A stretch of DNA of 64,000 nucleotides from Candidatus Omnitrophota bacterium (lineage in GTDB: Bacteria; Omnitrophota; Omnitrophia; Omnitrophales; JACROU01). The stretch lies in the NCBI GenBank assembly GCA_029261035.1, contig JAJDCD010000012.1, forward strand, positions 158,776-222,775, in the 5' to 3' direction. The translations under genes and the position numbers were made by a program. Below, in pieces: positions 1-43,024 of this stretch (within the stretch, counting starts at the first letter, position 1; the number at the start of each line of letters is the position of its first letter). The notes under the pieces were generated by a model that saw only the letters and a program-made list of their open reading frames with translations, was not told the DNA's origin and did no database searches.

Positions 1-3000
1 GTTGTTTTATAATTTCCTGTAAGACCGACAACATCCAACCCTGTTGAAAGAAGACTTGCCGCTAAAAATCCAAGAGGACCTGTTAATGTTCCTAAAGCAA
101 GAATAGATGCCGTTGTTACAGCTTGTGTGACTTCGTATGCTGCATTTAAAAACCCACCTCGAGATTGGATGATGTTTTTTCCTTCTTGGTGTTGAACGTT
201 CCATGTCGTCCAACCACTAATTGGAGTTGATTCTACGGGAGCACTTCCAGGTGCTGGTGGCAACTGACCTTTTGTATTGAATGGAATTTGAGCCATCTGT
301 TGTTGCTGAAAGTAGTCTTTTTTATCTTCACTGGAAACAAAAATTGCTCCAAGAGCTGGCGCAACAGAACCATTAAACCAGTTATTTTCTACTTCTGTGT
401 ATCCCAGAACAGCTCTACGCTCTCGATAAGATGTTTCTGTTAAATCATCACCAGTTGCATTGGCATTTTGAGGATTGGATCGAATAACATCTAAAGCATC
501 GGCTTGAGTATGCACTATTTGACCTGCTTTAGGGTGATCTTGTTGATTCCCTTCAGAGTCTGTCGTCTTAGCTGGATATCGAACCACCTCTCCATTGTGC
601 TTAAATGCTTGTAATGGGGGAACGACATTTCCTTTATGATCCCTTGTAACCTCTTCTGTTGCTTGTATTATAGTTCGTTGACCAAATTTATCAGAGCTCC
701 ATCCTCCAATTTGCTGATCAAATTCATTCATCACAGTAACACTCGTTTTCTCTATGGCGCTATCTGTCCCGTTAGGGTCAACTTCGCCATCTTCGTTATA
801 TTTAACTGCAGTAAAGTTCTGTCTAATAACAATTTTATTTCCTAAATCATCCACACTATTTGTTGTTAAGCTGACAGAACCATCAACAGCAAAACCTACA
901 CGCCCGACTACTTGCATTTTTCCGTCATCATCTGGTTTGTAAAAAGTCGTATTGACACTCCCGTCACTTCCTCTGCTTCGAATACCAACCGAGTCTTTAA
1001 TATCTTCAAAAGCACGATCTCTAAATCGACTACCTGTCTGATTGGACTCTCCACTTTCAGGATTAGCATAATCACTGAATAACTGTCGATAACTTTGTCC
1101 ACTGCCCAACCCTTCACCTTGACCCACAAAGAAAATAGTATCTCCAGATTTTGCAGGGACAAACGTAGGCTTATCACTACCATCCAAGAATAAGTTCACA
1201 CCCTGACGTTGCCACTCCCCATCAGAATCCTTATTATAAATAACTGATCCTTGAACCGTACTTTTCACTTTAGATGGATCTGACTGATCTCCTAATTCCA
1301 CTTGTACTTTTTCTGCAACCAAACGGGTCGTGGCAACAAAGGTACGAACACCTGCCGTATTAACAACATCCGAACCAATCAAAACTTCTCCTTGAGTCAC
1401 AATACTACCAACCATACGAGTATCCACAGAACTAAAGGTATAAACAACCTGTTTACCTTCGCTATCTTTTGTTTCAAGACGCGCTCCGGCTCTTAATGGA
1501 ATAAAGGTGTTCGTTCCAGCAGCATCCACACTTGTTTTAAGGTGAGTTCGGTTATTAATGGTAGAACCTACAAATTGATTATTTTGAATCACTATCCCAC
1601 CCAAGGTGCTTGTCGTAATCGTAGAACCTTTTGTTAAAGTCGTGGTAAATACATCCCCTGTATAGGTTCCTGTTTCATTCCCTTCATCATCTAGTGTTTT
1701 ATAAACTGTGTTGCCATTTTCATCCTGGGTTGCTCTTAATTTAACTCCATCCTTACCTTCATAACCGGTAATAAAATTATCACTCAAAACGGTTTGTGTC
1801 TTAGTTTTACTTCCAGGAACCGTTAATGTAATACCAAACACCGAACCCATTTGAATTTCACCAACAACCGTTCTCATCTGATTACCAGCATTATCGGTTT
1901 GAACCATTGCTCCAGAAATTAACTCCGTCTCACTCGTTTCATTACCATCTTCACCAATAACAGTCTTAATTTCAAAAACAGCGCCTTGCTCAAGCGTTAA
2001 ACTTCCACCTAGTTTATAATCATTGGATAATGCACGATGCCTTAATGTTTTAGAATCTACTGCAGAAATTTCTACTTTGTCACTAGTCATTGCACCACTA
2101 ATGAGACGGCCATCTCTCATCACAGAGCCTACTGCCATTTTAAACTTAGGAGACAGAATAGGGTTACCGTCTGCATCTAATTTAGGAGTACCATCTTCAT
2201 TTTTAAGAGGAACTCCACCTAATTCAATCCCATCACCTAAAAAAGTTTGTTCTGTATGTCTAGCACCATCGGAACCTTCATACTTCATTACATACATTCT
2301 TGTACTACCTTCTCCTTGCCAAATGCCTCCATCCACATGATTCATGGTGGTTTTTCCGTCTACCACATTAAACTCAACGACAGCGCCACCATCTAAGGTA
2401 ATACCACCTAACTCAATAGTTCCTAAATTAGCAGAATACGTAGTTTTAGTCGCTCCACCCTCCACAACTTCTTTAGAAGTACGTAACCCCGTTTTACTGT
2501 TATAACTTTCTCCAGTCGTTAATTGCCCATTCGTAACAATGGTTCCATCTTTATAAATCATGTTTCCAATTTGAGCATTGTCCTTAGTAATAGTTAAAGT
2601 ATCCGTAACCTCTCCGTTAGCACCTGCTTCTGTCACTTGAACAAAACCAATAGCTTCGTTGGTCTTAATCATTTTCCCACTAATCAGTTTCCCACCAACA
2701 AGTGTCGTGTTTTCTAATAATTGAGTCACAGTTCCGTCAGCACCTTCAATTTTAAAGTACTTGGTATAGGTCGTTGTACGAACAGTCGTTAATTCTCCCG
2801 TTTCATTACTAACTCGTTTTGTTGCTGTTGTAACAATACCCGTATTTTTATCCACCAATTTACCTTCAATCAAAACTCCATTTCTAAACACAGGTGTTTT
2901 TCCATTTTCTCCTCGTTCCAAAAAGACACCATCTCTAATTTCTGCTTTATCAACACCATCCAACAACTTCATCGTTTGTTCTGTCACACCATCTATCGTG

Positions 3001-6000
3001 TTATATATTTGACGAATTCCTTTTTTCTCGTTAACAACTTCTCCATTTGTAATTAAATCATTCACCATCTTAAGGCCTGCAGAATAAACCAAACCAGCCG
3101 CCTCGTTCTTTACTTCTCTTAATGTCGTGTTAATTTTGTATCCATTGCTAATCTCATTTCTCCACCCATTCACTTCATCCACAACCAAACCTTCCACCAT
3201 ACGACCACGCCAGAATGTTGTTCCTGCATCTGTTGTTATATTCCTAAGTACACCATCTACTTTACTGCGTCTTTGTTCTACCTTTTGAACCAATTGCTGA
3301 GTGTAAATAACTTTTCCAGCCGAATCCAAATGAACTTCCCCACCATCTTTAGTTACTGTAATGGTTCCAGATTTTTTACCTTCTGCATCGTATTGAAATT
3401 CGGAGGTTTGTCCTAAACCGCCCCCTTGGGTCGTTGATGTTCTTCGAAGAACCAATTCTCTCTGACCATCCTTTTCTTTGCCCACAGCTTCTCTTAACTG
3501 AGTCTCACGAACTGTTTTTATTTCCTTAACCTGTTTTCCCCCAATGTTATGAACCTCAACAACACGTCGAGCACTCGAAGTCTCTTCAGCCAACTTATTA
3601 CCACTATCCATATCATAAAGAGAGTTAACCGTAGTTCCGTTTGTTTTAACAATCTTAGAAGCTCTGCCATTCTGCATATCCCACCAAGACTTAAAGGAGG
3701 TTCGTGTGCCATCATCGGCTAAAATATTATGAGCTTCTTTTGCTCTATCAAAGAAGTCATCACTTGGAGGTTTGTTACCCGCAGTTGCTTCCTCATACTT
3801 TTTGCTAGCTTCAACCATTTTTGTAATGTAATTATTTACTTCTTCAAACATTACGTCATAATTCCCTCCAGAAGAAGTATTTTGAAATGCTCCTCCCTCA
3901 TAATCCATAGAACCTTTCAAACGTCTTTGTTCTGCTTCAATTAATCTCGTAAGCGCAGATCCGTCATTTCCTAAATCTGCCCCATGATTATGGTGGTCCA
4001 TATGATCCGGAGAACCGCACTGCGCTGGAGCTTTATGCGTGTAGCTTTTAACTTCTTTAATAACCCTTCTGCTTACAAAATCATTATCCAACTCTCTTTC
4101 GAACATTTTTTTCAAAGTAGTTTCTAATGTCTCTTTCATATCTTTAAATCGATCTACCACTCCATTGTTCAATCGAGCACCGTTAATTCTCTCAACTTCG
4201 TAAGCTTCCGTACGAGTCTGTGTATCTCGATCGTAAGTACTTCTCTGTCCCACTTTCCATTTAGAGCGGTAAGCAGTATATATAGTCGTGTCTTCATAAA
4301 TCTTTTTCATTAAGGTAGCAAGCTTTGCTGTATCTAAATCTGAAGCTTTTGATTTTTGAAAAGGGATATTGTTTAACTTTTCGCCCGTAAGAATCTCTTC
4401 TGTTTGGACATCACTATGAAAACGAACTCGAGAAGGTAAAATCTGAAGAGGATCCCAATCGCCAAAACGGTAAATAACTGTTTCATCCTGAACCAACTTA
4501 AAGTCTTGTTTAAACATATCTTCCCAGAGGTGCGCCATCTGATAAGTCTTTACATCTTTTTTAAATTCATCTACTTTAATTGGAGATGGCCATTTTTTAA
4601 TATATTCCAAAACTTTATTTCTCTCATATTTATCTTGTTCATAGGTAAATCCATCTTTCTCATAACTTCTATTTAAGATTTCATTCCCTTCTTGCTTTAA
4701 ATCTTCTTCTACAACCTCTGCAATAAGATCTGCTCTTTCATAAGCACTCATTTCATACCAGCTTTTCTTGGCTTCAACACGAGCAACAAACCTAATGTTA
4801 ATATCAAGCGCTGATAACTCATTCAAATCAACATCTGTAATGTTTGGGACTACTTCTCTTAAATGTTTTCTAGACGCTTTAATAAGAGCATTTCTATCCG
4901 CATCAATCAGCTTATCAATCTCTTCATTTACATATTTATCCATTGCATCGTCTACATATTTTTTCTTAATGATCAGCACATCTGTTTGTCCAACAGCGTC
5001 ATCTCTTTGTCGAACAGCATCATCAATTTGCTCTTGCGTGGAATTAGGATCATTCATAATACGTTGCAACTCTGCTTCTGCTTCGTTTTCTCCCCAAGCA
5101 TCAAAAAGTTTGGCTTTAATCTCATTGTAGTGATTATCATTTATAACAGTGTCCACAACACCTTCTTGAAACTCTGAAAAATCAAAATATTCGTGATTAA
5201 ATTTATCTCTTTCAACTTTAATTCCACGATCCGCTCCCATAAAACCTTCGTCTGTCTGAAAATCAATCCCACCGATCCCTTCTTCTATTTTATTGACTAA
5301 ATTCATCATACGACTAAACGACCCACCACCGCGTCCATCCGTATCCAAAATATCCTTAGTTGTAGGAAATGAAAGCGTTGTATCCTTTGTTGTTTCTGTA
5401 TAAGTACCATCCTCATTACGTCTATCTCCATAATATTGGCTATACCGTGGAGGCTCCCCAGTCATAATCCGTTCTTTTTCGTAAATTTTAAGAGGAGGAG
5501 TAGGCCCGTCTTGATATCTGTTTTCTTTATACTCATCGTATTTCTCTTCTGCACTTTTAAATACACCTCCCATACTGGTCATATCTAATTCAGGGGTGTA
5601 ACCTCCAGACATACTATAAAGTGAACGGCCATAATAATAGCCTGCATATTTGATAGGGTCGTCAGAAGTTCTATTCTTAGCAAGAATGCTTTCTGCCAAT
5701 GTTTTCATTTGAGGTTCGATCGTTGACTTTTGTTGCTTAATCCAATCTTTGTACGTATCAGCAGCATCACTAATCTTTCCTAAAGCTCCGTCCATCCCTG
5801 AAGATCCAACCAAAGCTTCATGTATTTGTTCAAATGCATCTCTGGATTTTTGAAATGCCTCTTGATAAGCTGCTTCTGTTTCATCCACAAATGTGGTGTA
5901 AGCTTCTCTAAATTCGTCTTGAGCTTTTTTATCAATTTCTTGTTTTGCATTTCGAATGGCATCTAACTGAGCAACAAACGTCTCTTCAATACCTTCTCTT

Positions 6001-33000: not shown

Positions 33001-36000
33001 GCACTATTCAAATTTTGCTGAGTAACATCTCCACTTTCATCTGTAATATTAATTTGAGTTAAATTAGAAGTATTATCATAGATATAAGATTGACTCGATC
33101 CATCTGGAAGCTCTACCAAAGTCACGTTACCAGCAGCATCAAATGTCTGTTTGGTTCCATCAGGCAATTCTATGTTTTGAACATCTCCAGTAGCAGATAC
33201 GTTTTGTATCGTCTCATTCCCATCGACATCGACAGATGTAATAGAGAGCAGACCCCCATTCCCATCATAGCTGTATCTTTGCTCCGTCCCGTCTACATTA
33301 ACAACTCTTGAAACATCTCCACTTTCATTAAAATGTTGCTCAGAACCATCAGGCAGTTCAACGCGCTTTATACTCCCATTAACATTTAAAAATTGTTTGG
33401 TTATCTCTTGATTCACGTCTCTAATTTCTACTTGATTTAAAGTTCCTGTAATAGCGTCATAAGAATAAATAGATTCACTTCCGTCTGGGTTTACAATGCG
33501 ACTCAGATTTCCATCCCCATTAAAAAACTGCTCTGTTCCATCAAAGGAAACCATTGAACCAATACTTCCGTCTGAATTTAAATTTTGTATCGTTACATCA
33601 TTATTTATATCCGTTATTGTGATTGAGCTTAAATCGCCATTAGCATCATAAGTGTAATCTTGGGAACTCCCATCTACAGATTCAACCCTAGAAACATTAC
33701 CTTCTGAATTTAAAAATTGTTTGGTTCCATCAGAAAGAAATATAGATGTAATATTTCCAGCAGCATCCAAATTTTGGATTGTTATTTGATTAAAGATATC
33801 GGTGTTTCTAATTTGACTCACATTATTATTCGTATCATAAAAATACTCTTGTTTCGTCCCATCTACATTTTCAATGAGGGCGATATTTCCTGAAGCGTCA
33901 AAGGTTTGTTTAGTTCCATCCCCAAGAACAATACTCTGAACTTGGCCTGTTGAAGAAATATTTTGAACTGTTTCACTTCCAGCCACATCCACAGAAGTAA
34001 TAGAAGTTAAAACACCTGTATCATTGTAATCATATCTTTGCTCGGAACCATCCTCATTAACTACCTTTGTAACATCCCCTTCTTTATTGAAGTGTTGGAC
34101 AACCCCATCTGGAAGATCTATATGTGTAAGATCACCATCCGTATCAAAATGTTGAGTTGTCTTCAGCCCTACAGCATCCGTAAACTCAACAGAGGTTAAT
34201 TCGCCTGAAACATCATAATTATTGACCTGAACACTAAAATCTGGGTTAACCTGATTTAATAAATATCCATCAGGATGAAATTGCTGAGTCGTTCCATCGG
34301 GTAACTCCAAAGCAGATAGAACCCCGTTATCATCAAAATTCTGCACCGTAACCAAACCATCTATATCTGTGACAGTAATATCTGTCAACAAACCTGTAGC
34401 GTTATAGCTATAATCTTGAACTGTTCCATCAACCAAAGTTCTCTTCTCAATTAAATTAGTAATAGAGTCCACTATATCCACTTGTCCATCAGGGTATGTG
34501 GTCGTTATAAGACCTGTATTTTCATCCAACACAGAAACCGGGGCTGGAAAATAGGTATCTCTTAATAAAGTGATACTACCCGTCAACTGATCAAATTCCG
34601 TTTGAGTTAGCGTTTGATTCGTAAGAGCATCGTTGACTGAAACTTCAAGAGCATCAATCAGATCTTCATTTTCCAAAGCATCCGCAACAGCTAATTGAGT
34701 CAAATTTTGTAATGTTTGATCATGGGTAACAAATGCTGGGCTTGCTTGTCCAGCATAAATCTGCTCTCTTTTTCTTTCTAACTCATTTTCCAGATCAACT
34801 TCTTTTAAAAAGTTAGACAAAGCTCGTCTTGAATTAATAGGATTGTAATCCTCAGAACCTCTTTCTAGCTTTACCGCTGCTTGTAGTCCTTGAATAAAAG
34901 CCCTTAAATCATCTGTCTCAGAAATAATTCCATCCTGATTAAATTCAAAAAGCTTAGGTCCTTCATTTGTATAAGCAATTACAAATTGACTCTCTTCACC
35001 TGCTACCTCAAAATCTCGAAGACTGGGTTCAACACTAGAAACACCACTAGGATGCGTGTGTGATTTAAAAGATGACTTTTGAATAAGTGAAGCTACGGAT
35101 TGAGAAGCGGTAATTTCATCATCTTGCCCACTAGAAAATAATACTATTTCTCCCTCAACAACAGTAATAGCAACTTCCATAGGCCAGTCAAGTAGACTTT
35201 GAAGACTATCAGCAGTAATTGCTCCAGGATCCAAAATAACAGCAGCGGCTACATCTTTATCAAAACCACCCATTTCCAAAGCGTCTTCAATACTGTAACG
35301 TTCTATTTCTCGAACATCTGCCCATAAATCTCGTTCAATACGATCTCTTTTTAGAAGCTCAGCTTCTCTTTCATATTCTTCAATAGTAACAACGTCCCCT
35401 TCGGGTTTTTCGATTAATAAATTCCCATCTTTGTCTTGAACCAACTTTGGAAGCGCTTGATCAGGATAACGGTAAGAATTCCTAAAATGCTGACGATAGA
35501 TATTCCAAACTTGAGCATGAGCTTCTGCTTTAATAGGATCGATTTTAGAACTTGGATTAACAGACCTGTCTTTGATTGATTTTAAATCCCCCAACAAATC
35601 CATCATTGAAATGGAAATACCAGCCTTCCCCTCTTCCCTCTGAACCTGAACCGTTCTACGTGCATTAGATTCAAGAAATTCCATATAGTAATTAAATTCC
35701 AAAGGCTTTTCTTCGCTAAAATTTTCCAAAGATTGATTAGAAACATCTTCACTTTTAACAGCTTCTTTTTCAATGAAATCTACAGCAGCTTTTGGAGCTT
35801 CTTTCTTTTCAACTTTGACGTAAGAAAAATAATCCTCTTCCACTTCTTTTCCTGTAAATGATTTTAGGGTTTCTTCTTTTGTTAAGAACTCCCCTAATTC
35901 TTTTTCTTTATCCTCTTCTTCTTTTGCAATTCTTGTTTCTTCATAAGCTTTTTCATCTTCAGCTTTTTTAGCAGCATCTTCGGCTGCAATTGTTTGAATT

Positions 36001-36230
36001 TCTTCTTCGGGTTGAGGCGCTACCATCTCTTGTAAGAAATCTTGTTGGTAACGGATATGTTCTAAATTAGCAGAGTTATTTTGAACAACTTTATTGATTG
36101 GAGTTAAAGAAAATGCGAATAGAATATCGTTCTGAGTAAATAGAAAGGTAACGAGAACCACCCAAGATATAATCTTGCGAGTGGAACGAAGAAAGGATTT
36201 CTTTTCCGATCGAGCCTTTTTTAATCTCAT
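1..36230 (-). CDS. Giant multi-repeat secreted/surface protein (YD/Rhs-repeat family). Start codon in window, C-terminus beyond the left edge; at least 12,076 codons in-window.
   Basis: ATG (plus 'cat') at 36228-36230 preceded by AGGAGG (36241-36246, 10-nt spacing) and by an in-frame upstream TAA. Hand translation reads cleanly everywhere sampled: N-terminus MRLKKARSEKKSFLRSTRKIISWVVLVTFLF (signal-like); LPDGSTQFFNKDGSVDT near 32560; DQTDGSTQIFVYDEAQEL at 28021-28080; NEDVQQVISPDGTIQDYEYDSENRASKITTRIGDLPDDIQ at 27601-27720; VTFKNLSEGWEAITTTSYERDEIGNITKTTETDKNGNQTIKDF near 23600; DQLKVAEGDAVAAAELAVKAAEFDLTNAKKDLKALEGTAGA at 9841-9963; YTHKAPAQCGSPDHMDHHNHGADLGNDG near 4000; EVVEGGATKTTYSANLGTIELGGITLDGGAVVEFNVVDGKTTMN at 2341-2470; VTTASILALGTLTGPLGFLAASLLSTGLDVVGLTGNYKT at 3-119. 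The ORF track lists no minus-strand true-frame fragment of 60 aa or more anywhere in 1-36230, consistent with one uninterrupted frame that lacks an in-window stop. Confidence 0.85.
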   Translation of the reverse strand, partial: MRLKKARSEKKSFLRSTRKIISWVVLVTFLFTQNDILFAFSLTPINKVVQNNSANLEHIRYQQDFLQEMVAPQPEEEIQTIAAEDAAKKAEDEKAYEETRIAKEEEDKEKELGEFLTKEETLKSFTGKEVEEDYFSYVKVEKKEAPKAAVDFIEKEAVKSEDVSNQSLENFSEEKPLEFNYYMEFLESNARRTVQVQREEGKAGISISMMDLLGDLKSIKDRSVNPSSKIDPIKAEAHAQVWNIYRQHFRNSYRYPDQALPKLVQDKDGNLLIEKPEGDVVTIEEYEREAELLKRDRIERDLWADVREIERYSIEDALEMGGFDKDVAAAVILDPGAITADSLQSLLDWPMEVAITVVEGEIVLFSSGQDDEITASQSVASLIQKSSFKSHTHPSGVSSVEPSLRDFEVAGEESQFVIAYTNEGPKLFEFNQDGIISETDDLRAFIQGLQAAVKLERGSEDYNPINSRRALSNFLKEVDLENELERKREQIYAGQASPAFVTHDQTLQNLTQLAVADALENEDLIDALEVSVNDALTNQTLTQTEFDQLTGSITLLRDTYFPAPVSVLDENTGLITTTYPDGQVDIVDSITNLIEKRTLVDGTVQDYSYNATGLLTDITVTDIDGLVTVQNFDDNGVLSALELPDGTTQQFHPDGYLLNQVNPDFSVQVNNYDVSGELTSVEFTDAVGLKTTQHFDTDGDLTHIDLPDGVVQHFNKEGDVTKVVNEDGSEQRYDYNDTGVLTSITSVDVAGSETVQNISSTGQVQSIVLGDGTKQTFDASGNIALIENVDGTKQEYFYDTNNNVSQIRNTDIFNQITIQNLDAAGNITSIFLSDGTKQFLNSEGNVSRVESVDGSSQDYTYDANGDLSSITITDINNDVTIQNLNSDGSIGSMVSFDGTEQFFNGDGNLSRIVNPDGSESIYSYDAITGTLNQVEIRDVNQEITKQFLNVNGSIKRVELPDGSEQHFNESGDVSRVVNVDGTEQRYSYDGNGGLLSITSVDVDGNETIQNVSATGDVQNIELPDGTKQTFDAAGNVTLVELPDGSSQSYIYDNTSNLTQINITDESGDVTQQNLNSAGNVVSITTPDGTQQIFDEDGNITRVESVDGSKQEYFYDADSNLNQIKITDSFDSVTTQNLDADGNVTSIVLSDGIEQFFNFDGSVSRVVSPDGSVQSYSYLADGSLRTLAITDSDGSTTTQLFDGDGDLSQIFLPDGSTQFFNKDGSVDTVFGADNTEQRYSYDEQGVLSSITSIDVDGNETVQNVSATGDVQAITLADGTRQTFDEQGNVLLVELPDGTRQQYIYDDNSQLKQILLTGLEGGVTIQNLSPEGDVLSIMTPDGTKQFLNENGDVSRVEQPDGSVQEFTYDVGGALTRITITDIYNQSTVQNLDAAGNVSSVVLPDGSSQFFNALGNVSRVIAADGSEQNYVYGAGGNVSSISITDIDGDVTTQNFNALGDISRVELPDGGAQFFDLEGNVTKVTASDGSEQRYNYDDSGVLTSITIIDIDGSETIQNISASGEVQTIELPDGTKQTFDANGNVSLVELLDGSSQAYLYDANSNLTQIKITDVDGGVTEQNLDLDGNVTSVKTPEGTQQFFNDNGDVSRVELLDGSKQEYLYDASGNLSQIKITAANNDITLQNLNLSGDVTSVILPDGSGQFFDVNGNVKRVLNSDGSEQNYQYSSDGILNSVAITDVDGGVVTQYLDIDGDVTRIELGDGSTQHFNKDGNISRVVGADGGEQRYSYDDNGVLSSISIVDVDGNETIQNVSATGEVQTITLPDGTRQTFDGSGNVTLVELPDGTDQAYLYDSNSNLAQIRITDANGDITEQNLDVDGNVTSVVTSDGTQQFFNADGDVTRVELPDGSEQEYFYDNAKNLTQIKITDPNNAVTTQNLNVTGGVTSVALPDGTQQFFNALGDVSRVVNADGSEQSFQYAPGGSLSSVAITDVDGLVTTQHLDSDGDLTHIELPDGSSQYMNKDGTLSQVVAADGATQSYAYSDQGVLTEITTVDADGNETVQSMSGTGQVQIIELPDGTIQVFDENGNVSLVELPDGTEQHFNTDGNISKVVNPDGSRQEYTYGYDQDGVASANKATIRVFSAPTAIVSYPEIELQADGTIKIINPNGTETLIDPTLNDQVVGAPVGDVELPDGYVAPASNDEAVNRLLASFRANNGEADNYVDFLKGQFADINATFSDAQGNPHTITYRQVGEHFDLMVTDGNQAAFNQVPSEVMIQAHDEYIKRYRNFMGIAVPEDSAEEVALRASLEEGAGPAIVGVSPDDINQTFFQNNLGTTEFDNYEAFLTNPAYRHIGGVVVDGAEVSYQDVADQINVIRSDLQQGNPVNISEGMKQAVSQYFNRFKAYFSSYYGDDYGDASGILEQVQTLDLGADGELGGEGVDADQTLFVQTADGTKQEYDYDDEGNLSQIKITSPDNQITYQNVDVDGNATSVELADGTKQFFNANGNVSRVEQTDGTIQDYIYNDLGVLTFVNITTPEGETTKQEMNSNGDVVSIELPDGTKQYFDFEGKVTGVDNLDGSSQEYIYDENAILAAIKLIDADGNETLQRMSEAGEVQTVELPDGTKQTFNEDGAISRVENPDTSKQEYIYQESVLTQIRITDENNILTIQNMNENGEVSSIELADGTKQFFNENSDISRVEQNDGTIQDFIYSDEEKLIQIQVTDPSGNITIQNMGENGEISSVELDDGTKQFFNANGDVSQVDQTDGSTQIFVYDEAQELTQIRITNSQGELTIQNMGANGEVSSVELADGTIQSFNSNGDVSQVVQPDGTTQDFVYNQADQLSQINVTDPEGDVTAQKFDSEGKISEVVTPDGTRQLFNENEDVQQVISPDGTIQDYEYDSENRASKITTRIGDLPDDIQQITSYQYEGEGDDAKTIVTSENPQTGVVSTQTLDSNDQLIRNEVLADGELSVFNENEELVEFTNKNGEKSLYEDGYIKQIIDKNGDVIQTFDLVRDPETNAIIDFTQVDYTPQNTNSQIIDGMSRDVFHNGTISYYKKDGALDFFTNSHAVIQSVQEDEDGNTLIFLNDGRKINYKKNPVTDEDVIDKITNLRGEVDVYLYNDQGELEAISKQTNSTDGPIRVIEKTVYLKDAEGNVVTDGEGNAKVDYVVSRTGSVNRSVYDPESPDKVLKTVREKSLEDNTKISESFFNEEGQVDTSVSYDEIGQEIISRSEYLYNEDGEMTGIQNFDVSDVENAADAVQKGTGAFQNTLYYKKLDNFNVPVIDYTQDGVGNKTTYEYDAAGYILKTVTTNALRNIVSEAIYEKGLFRDERIKAVINYEVDLDSPGASETKPGSMSVYEYNEDGDNTGLKQYRVNNEVDALDNLVDDVLVSDIQYLPGTTLIDYTVQYDDAGIATGRTDFFYDQGVLKKIVRRNSGDLDGAILFESFYEGDEPGKERTLYNIEYRVDENDPTLSVPDNRTDYAYDVTGALQEISRRSGPNETDPVLQKTKFKGAAGSEIASDVLNYRINEAGEAELSLWQHMEHDDKDRIKKIQYRNSEDPTAPIIQEARLEGDRGEELTTEMITFGIDPQTNQSSFSTHQKFVYDSNGKLLKTEIRDKDDLNEHPIAINLMEGEQGQERIYRALNYFKKEDGAYALASRQDYIYGDGGAISETQIRLQDSDSAAIKSASTYEGEPGRERVVETTEYDISQPGKVLSRSTFEYDENEALKQVNQFKEDTDVLLSTVKYEGTERGRERMSQVVTYEEDGDDADTDPDVSSTSDYTYAANGALTTVTQTEDGRSSVSTYEGDPGSERVSEISFYNGDGSLDKKSTYFYDENTGILDRVEDDDGTINYYRRDQFGQDLIDRTIDPTGKVTPYIYDTSSGESVLQVVGTEETTRTRYKQINVDGNQVSVIDTTEEPILFAEDGTPTAYRTNTFLYNSAGENVAILSSDGSLTINETVKDDDSKLLETIVTRTEANAEGYVLEQDADGFVIAVNPGTADIQEIRTLDAFGDVKSIVDRFGGETTFAYERDNGRITKSIATDKNGNITEKTLDIFGDPIKIVVQSAQGWTQETNISYDRDPVTSQILKSTKVDPNGNTTIEKFDINNNITERVFRSVEGWEAKSTFEYEFDENRNMIERRETDKNGNIKTEKFNGRQELVELTIQNIDQGWEDTTTYEYEHDELGNVSKTTETDKNGDKTIKEFDDAGDVVKVTFKNLSEGWEAITTTSYERDEIGNITKTTETDKNGNQTIKDFNVAGDITSSTFKNNEEGWEATTEFVYERDGVGNLVKITETDKNGNETIKQNNIHGDLIRLTFKNKDQGWEASTEFVYGKDDKGNVNLVTETDKNGNITQKAQSKYGDIQSLTVQNVEQGWSATTLFEYQKDDKGNIEKTIETDKNNNVTEKEMSKYGDVLSQTFKNLEEGWESTSRMLYEKDGKGNNKKITRFDRNNEKTEEHYNTSGDLITQVDNFGGVSVLDYTKDAKGNVLVTSTIDKNGNKTHRKTNVHGDTTALIDQYGGVTNITNEKDGKGNLSKQISTDKNGNETSQSFNIHGDVTGFSNKFGGLTSMIHEKDGKGNISKTIETDPNGLVTRKEFNLLRDLISLTNPLGGKTDFQYLRDGVGNVKFITEKDGRGLLVSKEMDVITGQIKKKIDEFGGITEYSYVLDSVGNTTHIIEVDPKSFIKTQVFDPKENDLIRIETYNPYSKTNVVANMSYNKDSLGNILSRITDDDQGNNTVSTMDLTSGDVTKNVVKNSSGVIISSTTSETIRNAEGTMEKVIETDDLTGNKTTRIYASNGDMTETISTPADGSYEKRIKMEYTREDGVLTQLIETDSNDRRTIKKFNKEGDMIEKRDPFGGVSTYSYVKRSNNQTEQITEVNKNGTVLLTQFNEDNDVTLSATISALTGEIQANRMSYDKRADGSVMKSYQSTISPADIQLALGGAIEQNDFNQSKAALQNLQILNDSAVNALERMRKSGLSTAEQIQEAENLVLSLQTQLADNESLMQAVRVSSFASLEQLNEVVQSLNDRAVAIASDLTQQIQDQDGLRASISLERIQSIQEGLDLAILGLESLGGTQEDLGDAATIKNAINGIVASLEDGVNNLSREVTSDVSLNILTEITGQINVLRTSSIEALTEGDLYIANQNIDSINALIQSAVSLKDDVIFDVNATEEQIQQAKSVVANLNDVSAALNVNLSDLSNRKTFKAVSEAGSSTGFGLKINSEELNVAFMANLMTESPEEFAAYQSFLDRNSTLLQTVKDTDGADVSLNYGEIRGQLSDISSGAKTSFSVEEAKAHANVINFYQKYFSADTDENLATLAIDQGVITVTRSNGKVMVFDSNQNDRILSETTIAGDEKTYNALGKLEREVKVSGEEVNYLYDDLGKLDMVTERNLDGDVTIQRFNVEGFLVVVDNPDGSKEFYNQSKNLEKIEFVDGTRKNYSYSDKGLLQKIKLTDAVGNETVQNYDPRGLISTVELPDGSVQFFGENQQIQSVNKANGNRVDYQYDENSVLSKIVVTEAGGTVTERVVGDDGNSFVVQLEDGTEQTYDLSGRIQLVVNGDGTQQEYSYSILGLLQTIEITDGEGKVTTQTLDQNRKVVSIEEPNGDMKYFNSEGRLYRIEHTDGSSKELGYSNEVLSSIKLIDEDGTEVIQAISPEGKIISETSSDGIVSYFNDDNLVSSVVYPDGSNHTYLYDENNNLITIEARDSNDALTVHTMAENGNIQQSVLPDGAVHDYNELGQLAKVTQVDGTVIDYSYWGATLREISLTAVNGEKTTQSFGYDGTLNRIDFPDGRIHYYYNENITRIDNVDGSSRQFKYDTDNNLIEVEITDNNYQTTTQAIDPDTNTLTVSLPNGSTEVYDASGKLLSINLSDGSSQNYIYDVSGNISSIQKTDKDGNVSQQSFDVQDTSTTVNLEDGSQQTYDVSGNVTKIEFLDGSMEEYSYDVENKLSEVRLTSVDNQVTIQQINSKGEVTAIQNPDGSRQAFGDDGSSQSYDVNDRLVSEVAIIDGKITLKDYVYDSNGTLTDTIVNDSNLGFSTEGITDVDSLKRMGELLLDPQMRQIVLDASAAGISGSLIAAALSLESENSSFVFQDTINSLISKLDAQEFSKDTLDQLVSNQVELKVILLFDTDSELQQLMDVLKSNDVSIDTSRVGNLNNIVSNAYETLDDSGLTKVKDALMNLLIMVDYVDPQNLEAIPEEDRYRLGVSEDYYSGGLTLNTYTYYNNRKTVFNSFKSFMNKFSGSEGEVLLSAGTLAGFGVTPKRIQGEYGYYGNVVLPGMDSKDQMSGFAQALEEASEADRTLMVEIVNNQLKSVEHITVMSSADWKEVLEKALVIKNNNLSVPINTTLESIRKTYDLVMDPATKPLVDSLAAEGIAGSVIGATSELEGRFPEFTAESTLNLIQDLIQQGNLSVTTINRMAAFGLDITTLMLFDSEAEFEKIFDGILRYGVTTNTIVVDMMNDMINGFIEYKGAASWESEKGRVKTFLMETLLDYDYLDITDTTTWGALTSEQRVKFGIIGDGTETSPYMYNTNDYYKNRQSVFYRMNDVISSASPNQGRALDILSSLYEQGVGGDYMLGGIAQGTLLYNGVYSINILDGFKQAMDQLGGNSAQGVAAINSGIAGFINFTNGFEEAEVYKGLVLNAVNIINSGISVNGARSIEDLERLNVMTQDPETLALMANLSSSNVSPAVLAMAKESEENFPGMLAKDVLTDLQTRIQSGAYDASLINHMTQMGLSLTSILMFDTEEEINQLADVLGRSGYYTAVEGTRASSLSALIDGFISHVGGANWKNEMSDAKDMLKTLMLSNGYVVPTQYVDSNSALQYDFDGVNESTYRNNRQTVFNNVINGFNSFQGTDKGIALQAMAALYKAGVNSTTLLGEYNQYGYVVTRGIQNKDQLTAYQELIEEAADPTTLIQVMENNVTPIVGTYPRIYSVEGWKETINKIVDLVNLNTSLDAITSTSILDTMHSLLTNPDTQNLVQAVTDAGMDSSVLILAGDTQGRHPEMVLADVLNELISRVNQGAMTADSITQLVSNGVSLQTILTFDLTEDLTKLFDALSNDGSDIDRYRKDKMNALIDSYLDHSGAANWQNIPGNVKNALRSVLLDNGYIPVDQLTAETNYYGSFSHYSYGTQGEEGYIENYFTHRKNIANRFFLLTSSTLRYDQGEGLELMAQLNDLGIDLDKVIGGLDQYGRTLGDGLKSTVQMQAYIQALNNAGDNLEAVITVIENNISTIVGRYPSQRTVEDWLSVVNDAAGLVAQNFSLDAITSTDQLSAMNALLSDPNLKTVTENALNAGISMAMVAGIGGTEGIDKAAVLTDLMTKLQNGDLTSDILDQANTAGLSAQVMMVFGSDLELNKIMDVIKNTNGSFDRYRKDKFNTIVSGFMEGNAGEGLDAAIAGFKNLLENSLFEGFIDPSLLTANTNYYGSVYNYTYGQSGDPDYTDDYYGDRKEKADLFLNYFSNNFRNEEGDAVNVLSQFVAEGVDIQFLFGTLDRYGRSSGDDVGAVEQMASYLKAIQAAGENKDKVVTALKDNMFNIVGRYPDPSTEEEWDAVVSKVVDLAVQDVDLSSISSIDALNSMHALISDPVMKEKVDNLAALGISASFVSAAQSMAQMHSSLDLESTLNLISDKVQNNIISAESINQLVSAGVSLLAVMIFDQTLELEQLYDVLLDESGALEDSRVVDLNEMLNSYLEHVGGELSEATDLFKAAFNSQLLSLNYIPKGQLTAKTNYYGSVYQYDYEDPTDSSNNIYNYYEQRGNTFKQIAGILDSLRYDKGEGVAIAIELLSAGVSKDQIFGTPGYYGNSGGIQNITQARGLLKAVSEAGNQKSQIVSIINNNLSSIIGPYPNMNTPEEWAEVIQTAANLQFLNIGSPTQWGKHIADSTSAVNLSVLDVEGGQSAESILADFQAIGAPSVISPLGLGGPSGVLDVSDFSSAPVVQLFDIPEIPESSLLPPEISEPDGILDDQPNVRAPPEDSPEAKGDFLFKGLGDEVAQQALSAGFVGLANVAASTIIREFGSDGELVSVEDDQGKAEVEQVFDSYGNLIKQIDHLEDNTITKEFDPITNNLLVFEDDNNRIEYQNITDAVGNVIGKIARTVKSDRPELVGTMNAQEFDVEGKLTKNIDGRGIVTSWTYGIDDEGKAFKRSEITEDPFFPEDRTTLGTVTIFNSDTTIKEVNRPDGSVMKYTYEREDDDPKGKILKTIVDGTAVQVNPVTQQEETLESHIEYDEKGDMTLSIANGVTHEFEYFREEGLLVKMIDNSSGGPNGASRTVNHYDDAGDLVKSEVYDGAALQVLQNQEAVPSEAPTEGTQIGSIIALPKVYEYKYEKDDRGNITLKTAYFDGNEVYYDGAGNQLGFQPSVGSVTTARLKNGWTLQYIKDTNSPANAPPPQEGDEITDFRVAGTANLAQDELFYQNGETMTPNGKIVWTNPSGIKGEIWYLEDQFDEDGQPVISARKVLKQIAIMSDGTFEDIIDERGDGSLLDDIDPRNANFRDPSSVILDGELPYQTFSLTSAQHQADVAITSAEVAEEAAAEARASAVKANSELSALSQPTQDMLKRVQELEAFAVKKEAEAVELRNDAAALQATANQKDTESNYDPTMSQIHKLFAAYQVGAAGPTAEIYKFIPPHLKNFTGLTDQMAENARYLSQDPPPKLVMPVQAKNAFVKAITNRIREHATMEKLYKETSKVVTAHENFRKDEGRLFVAINSFQDKDVFAENLATNLKSAEKYYDDVRNYLEGNNRDDLARAQQAMTAAKAALSGRQGAALREVIRAKEIALKNARDQLKVAEGDAVAAAELAVKAAEFDLTNAKKDLKALEGTAGAEPGQAAEFAEDISDKSWNDISFEEVDAGMMVLRKLDIRGLAAKKFLAEHDYNVAKQIVEQRQALYDQASDRDDSSPLLRDLEHAKDMLKVKERILVQRKRTVELFENLKKHTTDLKELYQPHNIENFYEDAIALDDPDFLDPALEGTDGHFVKDYRANKAKVETAINSFETTLTGHHNTHRAAYIALYDYALGQLNAYASKERTSYRWNSEVEAYQPHERTRYKPGGKSVSQWVSEFEASMYDGETDTEKRNNIKAANYTQMVSMAQSAMNFIIGESRPTPPSGRNIKWVETGQSISARAAKEAIADKVKADSKTADLDLAQNVLNLQTTTQAQLDTASDEMIDAYMEKVEALIDNTTDRLNRVKDEMMGTGTGEADNFKVSRDSRWADLKAAASDMVDSKEYDGISNRFDDIMDVWNDAKADADDSLARYKSHFENYQLFSDKEYHTARDPVILKMEQAIIDYEKDKKSAADNYNAARIQLDLDLDPKRQVYFEAKTEIEKNFSVQRATQEKALEGALLTLEDTLESKLSQYYSALQGVVQTFVSAAGSQSPISQADFDARMQSDDRRSFLDHYVEILSEQAGSLGVDLLLGDDRSSDSNATFSQYETTLQDFLTAANTSQTTHQPKQAIEDYEIQRAQAEADSKETIATLDKDMMDQLVAVETTWEKELVAYQEKVAEAVHLREIALADAEQKWNVDSAQFADVMNMTSIDYRNRTEENLRAWLKDQRGDYFHSGGMIQISPPTLVLYAGVAGSGFVAPTYPNQDRWDGESRSFTGGLGITTGMNPMVLDDYLQNAAEMDMRSNDFMEQITKNVVKTQEFFDRELFNDSDRYAQFLSLERDSLESFLQEVDSPFYTQSVSQYGSGSITDTGSTLRGTQLFGSTFSGFPFDTPTSSGTTTTGADEREQMRELYNDYVEERLGKKVRNEDGTYSYTPSKTKDYFDAFDAAISFEHDGDKFFLFDPKQEPPLSVNETVERWMAPYTPNKRSALDFSKFFRGLHERGDQVGMLNEKKLLAADELSAAFWENGFGENEGGPVAQYKRRYALADMSEIRGLLSQEERDVLDELGADDTFNESRWVNDAVTARYDAIRESDQAFNRALQDYDYQIEASMKDYYEVMGGDPDVQKEIQDFREEFPNRELSLELQNKLKGTARVALEQEEQKTRRGWDNAQQEYTDGIFEAKTAYDEALRVALNQFLEDQDEATFLASINSEKSIYEAAVSQFQQDYASTMNGITTAWKTAQRAFADATDAAIAKVKQEQEDAKTALEDMFKEEKEKREGIEETFVAQLDAIRNAKQEIDKKAQDEFREAYTTFVDETEAAYQEAFQKSRDAFEQIHEALVGSSGMDGALGKISDAADTYKDWIKQQKSTIEPQMKTLAESILAKNRTSDDPIKYAGYYYGRSLYSMSGGYTPELDMTSMGGVFKSAEEKYDEYKENRYQDGPTPPLKIYEKERIMTGEPPRYSQYYGDRRNEDGTYTETTKDTTLSFPTTKDILDTDGRGGGSFSRMMNLVNKIEEGIGGIDFQTDEGFMGADRGIKVERDKFNHEYFDFSEFQEGVVDTVINDNHYNEIKAKLFDAWGENEAEAELQRIMNDPNSTQEQIDDAVRQRDDAVGQTDVLIIKKKYVDDAMDKYVNEEIDKLIDADRNALIKASRKHLREVVPNITDVDLNELSALDINIRFVARVEAKKSWYEMSAYERADLIAEVVEEDLKQEGNEILNRSYEKDGFTYEQDKYERNKVLEYIKKWPSPIKVDEFKKDVKTYQMAHLWEDMFKQDFKLVQDETVIYRFGDWDPLQILPSRVRFHSDVQTEEILTGEKLNNIPFQKSKASDLDTAKLATLMKKIYEDTTIYTAYRSKWKVGQRSTYDRDTQTRTEAYEVERINGARLNNGVVDRFKDMKETLETTLKKMFERELDNDFVSRRVIKEVKSYTHKAPAQCGSPDHMDHHNHGADLGNDGSALTRLIEAEQRRLKGSMDYEGGAFQNTSSGGNYDVMFEEVNNYITKMVEASKKYEEATAGNKPPSDDFFDRAKEAHNILADDGTRTSFKSWWDMQNGRASKIVKTNGTTVNSLYDMDSGNKLAEETSSARRVVEVHNIGGKQVKEIKTVRETQLREAVGKEKDGQRELVLRRTSTTQGGGLGQTSEFQYDAEGKKSGTITVTKDGGEVHLDSAGKVIYTQQLVQKVEQRRSKVDGVLRNITTDAGTTFWRGRMVEGLVVDEVNGWRNEISNGYKINTTLREVKNEAAGLVYSAGLKMVNDLITNGEVVNEKKGIRQIYNTIDGVTEQTMKLLDGVDKAEIRDGVFLERGENGKTPVFRNGVLIEGKLVDKNTGIVTTATKRVSNETGELTTVRTTTYTKYFKIEGADGTVTQLLENTTLVGGKLISGKMIKTNEAIGFVQVTEAGANGEVTDTLTITKDNAQIGNMIYKDGTIVTNGQLTTGESYNSKTGLRTSKEVVEGGATKTTYSANLGTIELGGITLDGGAVVEFNVVDGKTTMNHVDGGIWQGEGSTRMYVMKYEGSDGARHTEQTFLGDGIELGGVPLKNEDGTPKLDADGNPILSPKFKMAVGSVMRDGRLISGAMTSDKVEISAVDSKTLRHRALSNDYKLGGSLTLEQGAVFEIKTVIGEDGNETSETELISGAMVQTDNAGNQMRTVVGEIQMGSVFGITLTVPGSKTKTQTVLSDNFITGYEGKDGVKLRATQDENGNTVYKTLDDEGNETGTYTGDVFTTTLTKGSTITTSTLGGIVIQNNQFVGSTINNRTHLKTSVDAAGTNTFIPLRAGARLETKDSEGKQVVYTFSSVDTRMVGSIVTQGEVLIGSDVVNTAGVRTFVATTRLVAEKVQVELGDQSDPSKVKSTVQGSVIYNKDSDGEWQRQGVNLFLDGSDKPTFVPAKSGDTIFFVGQGEGLGSGQSYRQLFSDYANPESGESNQTGSRFRDRAFEDIKDSVGIRSRGSDGSVNTTFYKPDDDGKMQVVGRVGFAVDGSVSLTTNSVDDLGNKIVIRQNFTAVKYNEDGEVDPNGTDSAIEKTSVTVMNEFDQQIGGWSSDKFGQRTIIQATEEVTRDHKGNVVPPLQAFKHNGEVVRYPAKTTDSEGNQQDHPKAGQIVHTQADALDVIRSNPQNANATGDDLTETSYRERRAVLGYTEVENNWFNGSVAPALGAIFVSSEDKKDYFQQQQMAQIPFNTKGQLPPAPGSAPVESTPISGWTTWNVQHQEGKNIIQSRGGFLNAAYEVTQAVTTASILALGTLTGPLGFLAASLLSTGLDVVGLTGNYKT
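12560..18050 (-). repeat. Six divergent tandem ~310-aa modules inside the giant CDS, each carrying a (L)TA(E/K/N)TNYYG motif.
   Basis: Motif copies translated at about 13125 (GQLTAKTNYYG), 14050 (LLTANTNYYG) and 14965 (DQLTAETNYYG), with diverged copies near 15880, 16770 and 17660. The ~0.9-0.95-kb spacing is visible on the plus strand. Confidence 0.6.
18250..20400 (-). repeat. Second YD-repeat block inside the giant CDS.
   Basis: Sampled translation DKDGNVSQQSFDVQDTSTTVNLEDGS near 18600, and the recurring DG...Q..YD..G.L pattern in flow-read translation. Boundaries are approximate. Confidence 0.45.
22580..24260 (-). repeat. About 10 tandem ~56-aa repeats (FKN..EGWEA.TT..YE.D..GN....TETDKNGN.T.K.F...GD) inside the giant CDS.
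   Basis: Recurrent 'tttccatctttttc / ttccatt(c/t)ttatc' strings on the plus strand, which read EKDGKGN / DKNGN on the minus strand. One unit (23530-23706) was translated explicitly. Confidence 0.65.
24400..27500 (-). repeat. Irregular Rhs-like repeat region (YEG-x-PG-x-ER...Y-x-YD motifs) inside the giant CDS.
   Basis: Flow-read translation shows motifs such as YEGDEPGKERTLYNIEYRVDENDP and YEGEPGRERVVETTEYD. Only partially verified codon by codon. Confidence 0.4.
27560..34430 (-). repeat. YD-repeat block 1 inside the giant CDS: about 36 tandem copies of a ~63-aa (189-nt) unit made of three ~21-aa YD-type repeats (Y-x-Y-D-x-x-G-x-L... / ...PDGT-x-Q-x-F...GN-V).
   Basis: The recurring nucleotide motif 'ccatc(a/c)gg...ttc' is visible on the plus strand across this span. 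Sampled translations: DGSVQSYSYLADGSL; QIFVYDEAQELTQIR; PDGTIQDYEYD. The copies are divergent at the DNA level, not identical. Confidence 0.7.
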
Positions 36231-36301
36231 GTTCAAAGGACCTCCTAGTTGCCTAACTAGTTCCCAGAACAAGAGAAAAAGGAATATTTGTTTACACTAT
36301 A

Positions 36302-36330
36302 ACTATACCTAGTGTTTCCTATTGTGTCAA
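36302..36330 (-). promoter_or_regulatory. Near-consensus sigma70 promoter for the giant gene: -35 TTGACA (36325-36330), 17-nt spacer, -10 TATAGT (36302-36307).
   Basis: Minus-strand sequence ttgacaCAATAGGAAACACTAGGtatagttatagtgt lies 30 nt downstream of the rndB stop and about 70 nt upstream of the giant-gene ATG. AGGAGG sits at 36241-36246. Confidence 0.55.
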
Positions 36331-39300: not shown

Positions 39301-39455
39301 CTAGCTCTTGTTGTAACTGAAATAATTCCTCGAGACATGTTTTGATAGAGTTCAACTTGAAGACTGATTAAGGAAATAACACCTAGGAGGATAATCCCAA
39401 CAAAGAATATGATAGTAAAAACAGGTCGTCTAACAGAAAAATTTGGAAGTCCCAT
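36360..39455 (-). CDS. RND family efflux permease (HAE1/AcrB-MdtC-like), 1031 aa.
   Basis: ORF track. RND N-terminus MGLPNFSVRRPVFTIIFFVGIILLG, 12-TM architecture, size typical of AcrB/MdtB/MdtC. Confidence 0.9.
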   Translation of the reverse strand: MGLPNFSVRRPVFTIIFFVGIILLGVISLISLQVELYQNMSRGIISVTTRARGGLAPVEVESLITKPVEESVATVARLKNLFSNSREGESKVTLQFEPGTNMDFAALEVREKFAKVKNKLPEEIEKPIIANFNDSDSPILIFSIVSGVKTPEELREYVEKNIKPAVARVQGVASVDVYGGRERKILIELDRDRMFAQNITVEKIMETVGSANVNLLAGDFQQGSLNIAIRTIGGFTEVEDIGEIGVGTTSEGSIVPLKEVGTVKDAYSEPQDYARLNNQDNCSLQIKKTSTSNTIKVSRSVQSEVELIRKFLDEDIRISVITDRAESIKKAIGEVRNSLLLGVILTVLTIFAFLRKVSLAFIVMLSIPSAVIGTFIFMAALGVSINVMTLTGLALAMGMLVDSSIVVIENIYKKKQEGMHHFEAVIVGAEEVWLPLAASAATTIIVFLPIIFIDKEIQLMYQGLAFTISASLICSLFVAVMLIPMLMSRIKLGRSGGAEDLKKLERSRFFSGYRFLLSKTFKNKYIVLLIVFLSFVYAAGEIGKKDMDMPSSYEENEFSVIVFPIAGAKLGANDRVAKIIEDLLSEFPEVETMNTVVRKDDLKLYVKLLPKRKRKTSKEEIIKYIREKGGEEAKTVHEDYSVIVDEGVSGDESTKLVIDIYGHENDKLEKLAHEFTGIMGKVPGLSNVVMTDLRKRPEYSLIVDRGRASYYNLTVKQVADSIHAQVRGMRPTKFREQEKGEEVETITRLQPIYREKLEDLRRILVGNKGGDQIPISQVASFFPSTGPSTIDRKDKHRYVFVKADTSRAIEAVAKDVKEAVKDVEFPKDYYFRFGGKYPELIKGRGQLSQAMIITVVLIYMLLACLFQSFVQPLLIMVAVPLAAIGVWAGLTLTGKPLSQSVFIGMIMLAGTVVNSSIILIDRINMLKEDYTHVESLLMRACQDRLRPIMMTTTSTLLGFAPMAISFGQSAELWAPLAITVMGGLISSTILTLFIIPCLYYGLDDLKRGFSKLRNIKIPKLSLKKKTEIPVN

Positions 39456-39475
39456 AACGTTGTCCTCGAATCCAT

Positions 39476-39630
39476 TAGCGGACAGCGTTTAGCGTGGAGC
39501 GTATAGGGTCTTTTGTCAATAGGCTCATCTGTCCAAAACATGTCCACTTAATCTATAATTCACTTTATTTATACTACGCGTCACAAAAGAACCCAGTTTT
39601 ACTATCCGCTCTACGCTATGCGCTACACGC
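39476..39630. repeat. Imperfect ~22-bp GC-rich inverted repeats (gcgtttagcgtggagcgtatag / ctctacgctatgcgctacacgctag) flanking a ~75-bp AT-rich spacer in the 167-bp gap between the two RND genes.
   Basis: Reverse complement of the right arm, gcgtgtagcgcatagcgtagag, matches left arm gcgtttagcgtggagcgtatag at about 80%. Islands of this GC content are unusual here. Confidence 0.45.
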
Positions 39631-42898: not shown

Positions 42899-43024
42899 AG
42901 TTCACCTCAAGGTTCTTTATAAGTATACACCATATTTGCATTTATGACATTTCTTAGTTGCTAAACGGTGTTCCGAGGAGGGATTTAGATATTTATCCTT
43001 GCTACTATAGTAAATATCTCTTAA

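Follow-up and report, generated by a model that had tools for sequence, protein, structure and literature searches.

The first 36.2 kb of a 64,000-nucleotide stretch of contig JAJDCD010000012.1 (hereafter called the window) hold the 5ʹ portion of one giant gene, which lies on the minus strand of an Omnitrophota-like chromosome and is almost certainly genuine. Its 3ʹ end and stop codon are located beyond the left edge of the window, and all protein figures given below refer to the 12,076 codons within it. Four blocks of RHS/YD repeats account for approximately 40-45% of the encoded protein, and a run of helical modules separates the third block from the fourth. We consider it moderately likely that the product is exported by the Sec route and serves an episymbiotic or predatory Omnitrophota-like bacterium as a fibre or adhesin on the cell surface, possibly held there by a C-terminal anchor. 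The gene is of a known kind that is routine in Omnitrophota, and it constitutes neither a record nor a new class.

A single coding frame of more than 36 kb

Reverse-complement translation of the window yields a minus-strand frame that runs from an ATG codon at positions 36228-36230 to window position 3 with zero stop codons over 12,076 codons. The remaining two minus-strand frames over the same interval contain 786 and 1,483 stops. From the base composition, the probability of a stop is 0.077 per codon (approximately 1 per 13), such that the chance of observing an open frame of this length is about 1e-420. An earlier preliminary description, prepared from the DNA letters and a list of open reading frames (ORFs), had proposed a single uninterrupted ORF of more than 36 kb and at least 12,076 codons, and this proposal is fully borne out. 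The translation start it pointed to is also present: a Shine-Dalgarno sequence (AGGAGG, positions 36241-36246, minus strand) resides exactly 10 nucleotides (nt) 5ʹ of the ATG, which is preceded by an in-frame stop 22 codons upstream. In addition, a putative sigma-70-like promoter (TTGACA-17 nt-TATAGT, positions 36302-36330, minus strand), recognized by its 11 of 12 matches to the consensus, falls within the 129-nt gap between the stop codon of an upstream AcrB gene (36360) and the giant ATG.

Codon-level statistics of the frame resemble those of the genes around it. The guanine-plus-cytosine (GC) content by codon position is approximately 0.51/0.36/0.25 in each 2,000-codon slice of the giant gene, and the relative synonymous codon usage (RSCU) of the frame correlates with that of 16 neighbouring genes at r=0.85, compared with 0.31 and 0.46 for the two off-frames. 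Together with the lack of any in-frame stop across positions 1-36230, these values uphold the continuous coding frame put forward in the preliminary description. Moreover, when five in-register 252-amino-acid (aa) super-repeats are compared as paralogues, the nonsynonymous divergence (dN, 0.23-0.41) is well below the synonymous divergence (dS, 1.3-2.2), which indicates purifying selection on the protein.

Giant frames of this sort could also arise as artefacts, either from a chimeric or misassembled metagenomic contig or from a decaying pseudogene region that stays open by chance. The DNA evidently comes from a contig in NCBI that derives from a metagenome, and the giant ORF is apparently missing from a protein collection in which its neighbours are present. 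However, DNA self-matches of at least 100 bp inside the gene reach an identity of 74% at most, and Tandem Repeats Finder (TRF) reports just two short arrays at 73-74%. There are thus no near-identical repeats to collapse or join, and repeat-driven misassembly is unlikely. The GC content is flat at approximately 0.37 across the entire window, and the neighbouring genes have been independently assembled from run SRR15505516. When these observations are added to the vanishing chance of an open frame, the uniform codon-position composition, the neighbour-like codon usage and the excess of dS over dN, an artefactual origin becomes highly improbable.

Searches with the two ends of the protein were unproductive. 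Neither the N-terminal 560 aa nor the C-terminal 1,276 aa has a homologue among 5.8 billion protein clusters, and the C-terminal 500 aa of the in-window product find no match in species-representative genomes or JGI metagenomes. Because these parts of the ORF retrieve nothing, the giant gene seems to have gone uncalled or not to have been kept in the protein collection.

RHS/YD repeats that lack the companions of known Rhs proteins

The preliminary description also anticipated a mosaic of repeat families in a YD/Rhs-type surface protein or polymorphic toxin. The mosaic is confirmed by the four YD blocks and six copies of a helical module, and the RHS repeats are equally genuine. The Pfam family RHS_repeat (PF05593) matches with E=4.6e-111 in aa 1-5000 and 1.1e-24 in aa 5001-10000, and the Pfam scan of the giant protein brought no other family above threshold. 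The NCBIfam model YD_repeat_2x (TIGR01643) matches with values of 2.7e-60 and 5.4e-13, and 49 units of 63 aa are detected with a self-built hidden Markov model (HMM). An NCBIfam 'RHS_core' equivalog (NF041261) with a cutoff of 2,000 bits reaches 216 bits, far too low to reflect anything other than repeat similarity. All sequence matches in the PDB are to shells of Rhs proteins of the type VI secretion system (T6SS), namely Salmonella bongori Rhs, RhsP, Tre23, Tse15, Tse5 and RhsA, with E values of 1e-10 to 1e-16.

The blocks differ in their regularity. Block 2, for example, begins with regular 63-aa units (aa 2400-2870), continues with divergent YD sequence (aa 2870-3950) and ends with 'ETDKNGN' repeats that have a period of 51 aa (aa 3950-4900). 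Block 3 has only five relatives at E<=1e-10, each of which is approximately 23% identical. An AlphaFold2 (AF2) model of this block, built from a shallow 11-row alignment, contains 69 beta-strands and zero helices, with approximately 10.5 residues per strand, a predicted local distance difference test (pLDDT) score of 87.6 and a predicted template-modelling (pTM) score of 0.41. Local 3Di structure neighbours of the modelled block are Rhs effectors, teneurins (2/3/4), a bacterial teneurin-like protein (TLP) and TcB/TcC. Global superposition on the teneurins fails (TM score of approximately 0.14), and the best rigid-body matches are flat single-layer sheets. The model therefore suggests hairpins that would be of Rhs type locally, within a block that overall would form an open, elongated ribbon. 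Given the shallow alignment and low pTM, closure of block 3 into a cocoon is graded as 'leaning no' only.

These features invite the proposal that the giant is an Rhs-type polymorphic toxin or a Tc/teneurin-like encapsulation device, in which the YD blocks form cocoons and a C-terminal core, autoprotease and toxin lie beyond the window for delivery to competitors or prey. The strong RHS_repeat and YD profile matches, the T6SS Rhs effectors, teneurins and TcB/TcC among its sequence and local-structure neighbours, and the location of the true C-terminus outside the window are all in keeping with such a device. The closest external YD homologue also carries the NCBI name 'RHS repeat-associated core domain-containing protein'. 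However, the 12,076 aa contain no match to the Rhs-associated core TIGR03696, no PxxxxDPxGL autoprotease motif (by regular expression) and no PAAR, VgrG, DUF6531 or toxin domain (by Pfam and NCBIfam). Likewise, no N-terminal trafficking module (PAAR, VgrG, prePAAR, DUF6531 or TcB-like) is found: aa 1-560 give no Pfam or NCBIfam match of any kind at a threshold relaxed to E<=1. From the end of the last YD-like block, at aa ~8450, more than 3,600 aa of unrelated sequence lead up to the window edge, whereas known Rhs proteins have the core and toxin right after the shell. Block 3 is not closed in its model, and neither T6SS nor immunity genes are seen in the window. We therefore judge a toxin container to be unlikely. 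Of the earlier expectation, the RHS repeats and a plausible surface location stand, but the toxin part is not supported.

The giant shares with T6SS Rhs toxins (RhsA, RhsP, Tse5, Tse15, Tre23) and with TcB/TcC a YD beta-hairpin that is seen by Pfam, TIGRFAM, the PDB search and local 3Di comparison. In contrast to these proteins, it is approximately ten times longer, has several separate interior YD blocks, is modelled as an open ribbon, and carries no Rhs core, aspartyl autoprotease motif, N-terminal plug, PAAR, VgrG or visible toxin. With teneurins and the bacterial TLP it has in common a predicted extracellular, membrane-associated setting and a repeat of the YD shell type, as well as structural matches (teneurin 2/3/4 and TLP). 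However, unlike teneurins, it lacks a TEN_YD-shell Pfam match, an NHL propeller, an FN-plug and Tox-GHH. The occurrence of YD repeats without the hallmarks of Rhs toxins is relevant to the uses that this repeat may have other than in cocoons.

A different proposal is that the YD blocks build long tubules, each a hollow antiparallel beta-helix, which would make the protein a protrusion or conduit and not simply an adhesin fibre; this proposal overlaps with the reading that we favour. Tubules of approximately 1,500 aa, predicted with AF2 and likened to RHS repeat proteins in some of their features, have been described in Archaeovorin- and Dockerin-type Omnitrophota giants (West-Roberts 2023). 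Block 1 is of similar size (~1,520 aa) and extremely regular, with periods of 63 and 252 aa, and the block 3 model shows a regular, elongated row of beta-hairpins, although its pTM leaves the overall shape uncertain. On the other hand, the published tubules bear regularly spaced exterior alpha-helices that the block 3 model does not have, and this model superposes best on flat single-layer sheets. Hollow tubules are thus a minority prospect, if a slightly better one than a toxin container.

Single-layer beta-sheet proteins, including the OspA central sheet, the CPAP/SAS-4 G-box/TCP10 domain and MORN repeats, offer a geometric parallel to the modelled ribbon at 7-13% identity, which implies no homology. 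These proteins are 100-200 aa long, whereas the YD repeats of the giant extend over thousands. As a rough extrapolation, taking approximately 10.5 residues per strand from the model and assuming 4.8 Å per strand, the YD-type repeats (~5,000-6,000 aa in total) could reach a length of 0.2-0.3 µm if fully extended.

An orphan helical module

Between blocks 3 and 4, the chain carries six tandem copies of a module of approximately 305 aa, in which the later copies are 25-35% identical to the first. The module is all-helical and folds confidently in its model, and it has no structural match. Its one genuine relative among 1.84 billion proteins is MBI4397904.1, from an Omnitrophota metagenome-assembled genome (MAG). 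The DNA that encodes this relative (GCA_016206875.1, contig JACQQR010000071.1, positions 1-4433, from a Candidatus Omnitrophota MAG) carries several copies of the module. This 4.4-kb contig is also a single open fragment from end to end, and with its module copies it evidently stems from another giant gene that has been truncated. A second match of the module profile, to a Cys/Lys-rich low-complexity repeat protein, was judged to be spurious.

Layout of the protein

The coordinates of all segments are listed in Table 1. Searches with the non-YD segments returned nothing meaningful in Pfam (E<=1), NCBIfam or the PDB. The charged region of 2,350 aa that follows block 4 (aa 8451-10800) shows no internal repeat, family match or PDB match.

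Table 1. Segments of the giant gene product and their positions in the window
Segment	Residues (aa)	Positions	Strand	Basis or remark
In-window giant gene	1-12076	1..36230	-	12,076 codons; frame codons end at position 3, 3ʹ end cut by window edge
Putative Sec signal peptide or anchor: basic n-region MRLKKARSEKKSFLRSTRK, hydrophobic core, AFS	1-42	36105..36230	-	Hydropathy only
Acidic N-terminal region, no detectable homologue	43-559	34554..36104	-	Sequence and profile searches
YD/RHS block 1: ~25 units of 63 aa as a 252-aa super-repeat	560-2080	29991..34553	-	
Non-repeat spacer domain, no family match	2081-2399	29034..29990	-	
YD/RHS block 2	2400-4900	21531..29033	-	Profile matches, self-comparison
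Helical/spacer region, no family match	4901-5279	20394..21530	-	
YD/RHS block 3: 11 units	5280-6000	18231..20393	-	AF2 model, self-comparison
Six tandem ~305-aa helical modules	5994-7831	12738..18230	-	
Pro/Ser-rich linker	7832-7989	12264..12737	-	
YD-like block 4, divergent	7990-8450	10881..12263	-	
Charged Ala/Glu/Lys-rich region with Gly/Ser/Thr linkers	8451-10800	3831..10880	-	Coiled-coil-looking by eye
Gly/Thr-rich region, beta-rich in appearance	10801-12030	141..3830	-	Faint similarity to YD blocks
Gly-rich hydrophobic ILALGTLTGPLGFLAASLL, candidate transmembrane helix at window edge	12031-12076	3..140	-	Kyte-Doolittle score 1.81

A segment of approximately 120 aa is present twice, at aa 158-284 (positions 35379-35759) and aa 5186-5304 (positions 20319-20675), with 27-29% identity and an E value of ~1e-6. 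Both copies are located N-terminal to a YD block: one abuts block 3, and the other lies ~275 aa before block 1. This position suggests that the segment could be a capping or 'pre-YD' module.

Within the acidic N-terminal region, the sequence SHTHPSGVSSVEPSLRD (aa 391-406, positions 35013-35060) contains HTHPSG and resembles the HxHPxG...SxxD motif of JAB/MPN proteins. Its reading as a JAB/MPN (RadC-like) metalloprotease was rejected when Pfam, NCBIfam and the PDB all failed to support it.

A predicted surface fibre

The in-window product has a mass of approximately 1,331 kDa and a pI of 4.37. Asp, Thr, Gly, Glu, Ser and Asn are abundant in it, whereas cysteine occurs once in 12,076 aa, at aa 10738. 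A 19-residue hydropathy scan detects three hydrophobic segments only. The first (aa 20-42, Kyte-Doolittle score 1.72) follows a basic stretch and ends in an AFS motif, and therefore has the appearance of a signal peptide for Sec export or of a signal anchor. The second (aa 6028-6046) belongs to an amphipathic helix of one helical module, and the five sister copies are not hydrophobic there. The third (aa 12043-12061) is found at the very edge of the window. The signal-like N-terminal segment and the Gly-rich hydrophobic in-window end reported in the preliminary description are thus both recovered by the scan. Between the export-type N-terminus and the window edge, approximately 12,000 residues carry no credible membrane-spanning segment by hydropathy.

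From these features we envisage the following arrangement. The N-terminus would direct Sec-dependent export, and most of the chain would form a long fibre or coat of modules beyond the cytoplasmic membrane. In this structure, the YD blocks might adopt single-layer beta-sheet ribbons, either extended or spiral, and provide rigid spacers or surfaces for binding, and the helical modules might serve as further spacers or mediate interactions. A C-terminal membrane anchor would start with the hydrophobic segment at the window edge. If the giant proteins of Velamenicoccus archaeovorus and other Omnitrophota are a guide, the most likely role of such a protein would be attachment to, and interaction with, host or prey cells.

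Several points weigh against this surface-fibre arrangement. Adhesion-type Pfam domains (discoidin, laminin G, dockerin and TSP3) are not found in the giant. The 28 kb upstream hold RND efflux and housekeeping genes, and not the type II secretion system (T2SS), Tad-pilus or glycoside hydrolase (GH) genes that are reported beside most Omnitrophota giants (Nielsen & Lui 2026). Only 2-3 hydrophobic segments occur in 12,000 aa, far fewer than the mean of ~22 transmembrane (TM) helices reported for Omnitrophota proteins of at least 10,000 aa. The putative signal peptide and TM segments are read from hydropathy, and the predicted ribbon geometry comes from an 11-row alignment and a low-pTM model that would also permit a cocoon or tubule. 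Finally, the probable phylum assignment draws on two RND genes and one module homologue rather than on a marker phylogeny.

A bolder version, to which we assign a small chance equal to that of the tubules, combines several of these elements. The RHS/YD repeat might here have a use not described before: in a megadalton chain, core-less YD blocks would form open ribbons or hollow tubules with a combined length of roughly 0.2-0.3 µm, strung together with the structurally novel 305-aa helical module, which is so far known only from Omnitrophota. The YD repeat would then not enclose a toxin but would provide a fibre or conduit that links the nanobacterium to its host.

Comparison with Omnitrophota giants and other large surface proteins

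Of 116 species representative genomes of Velamenicoccia, 77 contain ORFs longer than 20 kb, and such ORFs are also common in the other Omnitrophota classes. They are poorly conserved, have few annotated domains, and have been proposed to function in adhesion or predation; a 39,678-aa protein of V. archaeovorus has proteomic support (Seymour 2023, PMC10066038). A combined in-house and NCBI set includes 5,761 Omnitrophota proteins of at least 10,000 aa, in which 80% of clusters are singletons, and at least one giant is present in 93.8% of complete genomes. The longest has 147,155 aa (Nielsen & Lui 2026), and another maximum on this scale is 85,804 aa (West-Roberts 2023; Nielsen & Lui 2026). Consequently, the claim in the preliminary description that the present gene is among the largest bacterial genes must be withdrawn, as thousands of Omnitrophota proteins reach its size class. 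A length of 12,000 aa is modest for Omnitrophota, and it leaves the picture of bacterial gene-size limits unchanged.

The giant resembles its Omnitrophota counterparts in many respects, including its inferred lineage, its length of at least 10,000 aa, a signal-like N-terminus as judged by hydropathy, and an N-terminal region without recognizable domains. Most of its sequence is dark, it is a singleton, its internal repeats are old and diverged, its bulk is predicted to be extracellular, and one Pfam repeat is dominant by copy number. Among Omnitrophota giants, 94% have a signal peptide or TM helices, the repeats are old rather than recent expansions, and 'tandem-repeat scaffold' is one defined class, with pilZ, T2SS, Tad and GH genes reported next to the giants (Nielsen & Lui 2026). 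The protein fits this tandem-repeat scaffold class, with RHS_repeat as its dominant repeat.

Other features set the giant apart. Its dominant repeat, RHS_repeat, is listed in neither West-Roberts 2023 nor Nielsen & Lui 2026, the nearest mention being a structural analogy. Archaeovorin- and Dockerin-type giants have been described (West-Roberts 2023), but unlike these, aa 1-12076 have no Pfam match to SecA-DEAD, glycosyltransferase (GT)/GH/methyltransferase/NUDIX, dockerin or TSP3 families. The C39/S8 peptidase and glycosyl hydrolase/transferase domains of Omnitrophota giants are likewise absent. The protein is thus a well-verified, sequence-unique addition to the catalogue of Omnitrophota giant proteins, and it extends their known repeat repertoire to bona fide RHS/YD repeats.

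Giant repeat adhesins of Gram-negative bacteria that carry RTX repeats and are exported by type I secretion systems (T1SSs), such as LapA, SiiE and MpIBP, provide another parallel. They too are megadalton, acidic, Cys-poor and repetitive extracellular fibres, and a pair of genes for a TolC-like protein and a membrane fusion protein (MFP) is located just upstream of the giant gene. However, the giant has a putative N-terminal Sec-type signal rather than a C-terminal T1SS signal, with the caveat that its C-terminus lies outside the window. The upstream pumps are of the RND (AcrB) type rather than ABC exporters, and neither BIg nor RTX/HemolysinCabind repeats are found in the giant.

Genomic neighbourhood and lineage

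Every gene of the 64-kb window is carried on the minus strand, as are three tRNAs (Gly-GCC, Leu-TAG and Lys-CTT). The GC skew is negative in each 2-kb bin, and co-orientation is complete over the 64 kb. Directly upstream of the giant gene is an RND efflux cluster (positions 36360-46326, minus strand) that encodes a TolC-like outer-membrane efflux protein (OEP), an HlyD-type MFP and two tandem AcrB/RND pumps. Farther upstream are genes for ProRS, RseP, Dxr, CdsA, UppS, PurA, SerA, ClpP, trigger factor and a two-component pair, and the upstream region also includes the three tRNAs, PhoU, a Na/Pi transporter, Dcd and SufE. The combination of RND and housekeeping genes upstream of the giant gene indicates a core chromosome rather than an island.

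The AcrB pair provides a clue to the origin of this chromosome. In a Candidatus Omnitrophota groundwater MAG (JACROU010000024), a syntenic pair is 78% identical for the downstream protein and 70% for the upstream protein, whereas the other AcrB matches, in Leptospira and in a MAG of an actinomycete, reach an identity of 25-30%. An AcrB scan of metagenomes gave no match. Judging from these two RND genes and the origin of the module homologue, the window probably sits in or near Omnitrophota. The genes that follow the AcrB pair in JACROU010000024 are unrelated to the giant.

The RND/TolC/MFP cluster was also considered as a dedicated secretion system for the giant. This candidate was set aside, since RND pumps are not T1SS ABC exporters and a separate promoter-like site precedes the giant gene. 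The two tandem AcrB paralogues share just ~30% identity, and the cluster could encode a heteromeric pump. The TolC-like OEP is unusually long at 687 aa; its best OEP-domain stretch is aa 446-672, preceded by a long N-terminal extension.

The housekeeping proteins of the window occur as singletons in the public protein collection, on a 272,718-bp NCBI contig, and in Logan run SRR15505516. ProRS, for example, is found on a 5.6-kb Logan contig, and searches for exact copies of the neighbouring AcrB and MFP proteins gave no record. A 129-aa ORF (positions 62285-62674, minus strand) between the genes for the Na/Pi cotransporter and dCTP deaminase has no Pfam match.

Two of the upstream gene starts appear to need adjustment. 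The trigger-factor ORF (55768-57144 region, with a TTG at 57114) overlaps tRNA-Gly (57070-57144), and its true start must therefore lie farther downstream. Similarly, the CdsA ORF (50523-51416) overlaps UppS (51316-52092) by approximately 100 nt, and the CdsA start is probably over-extended.

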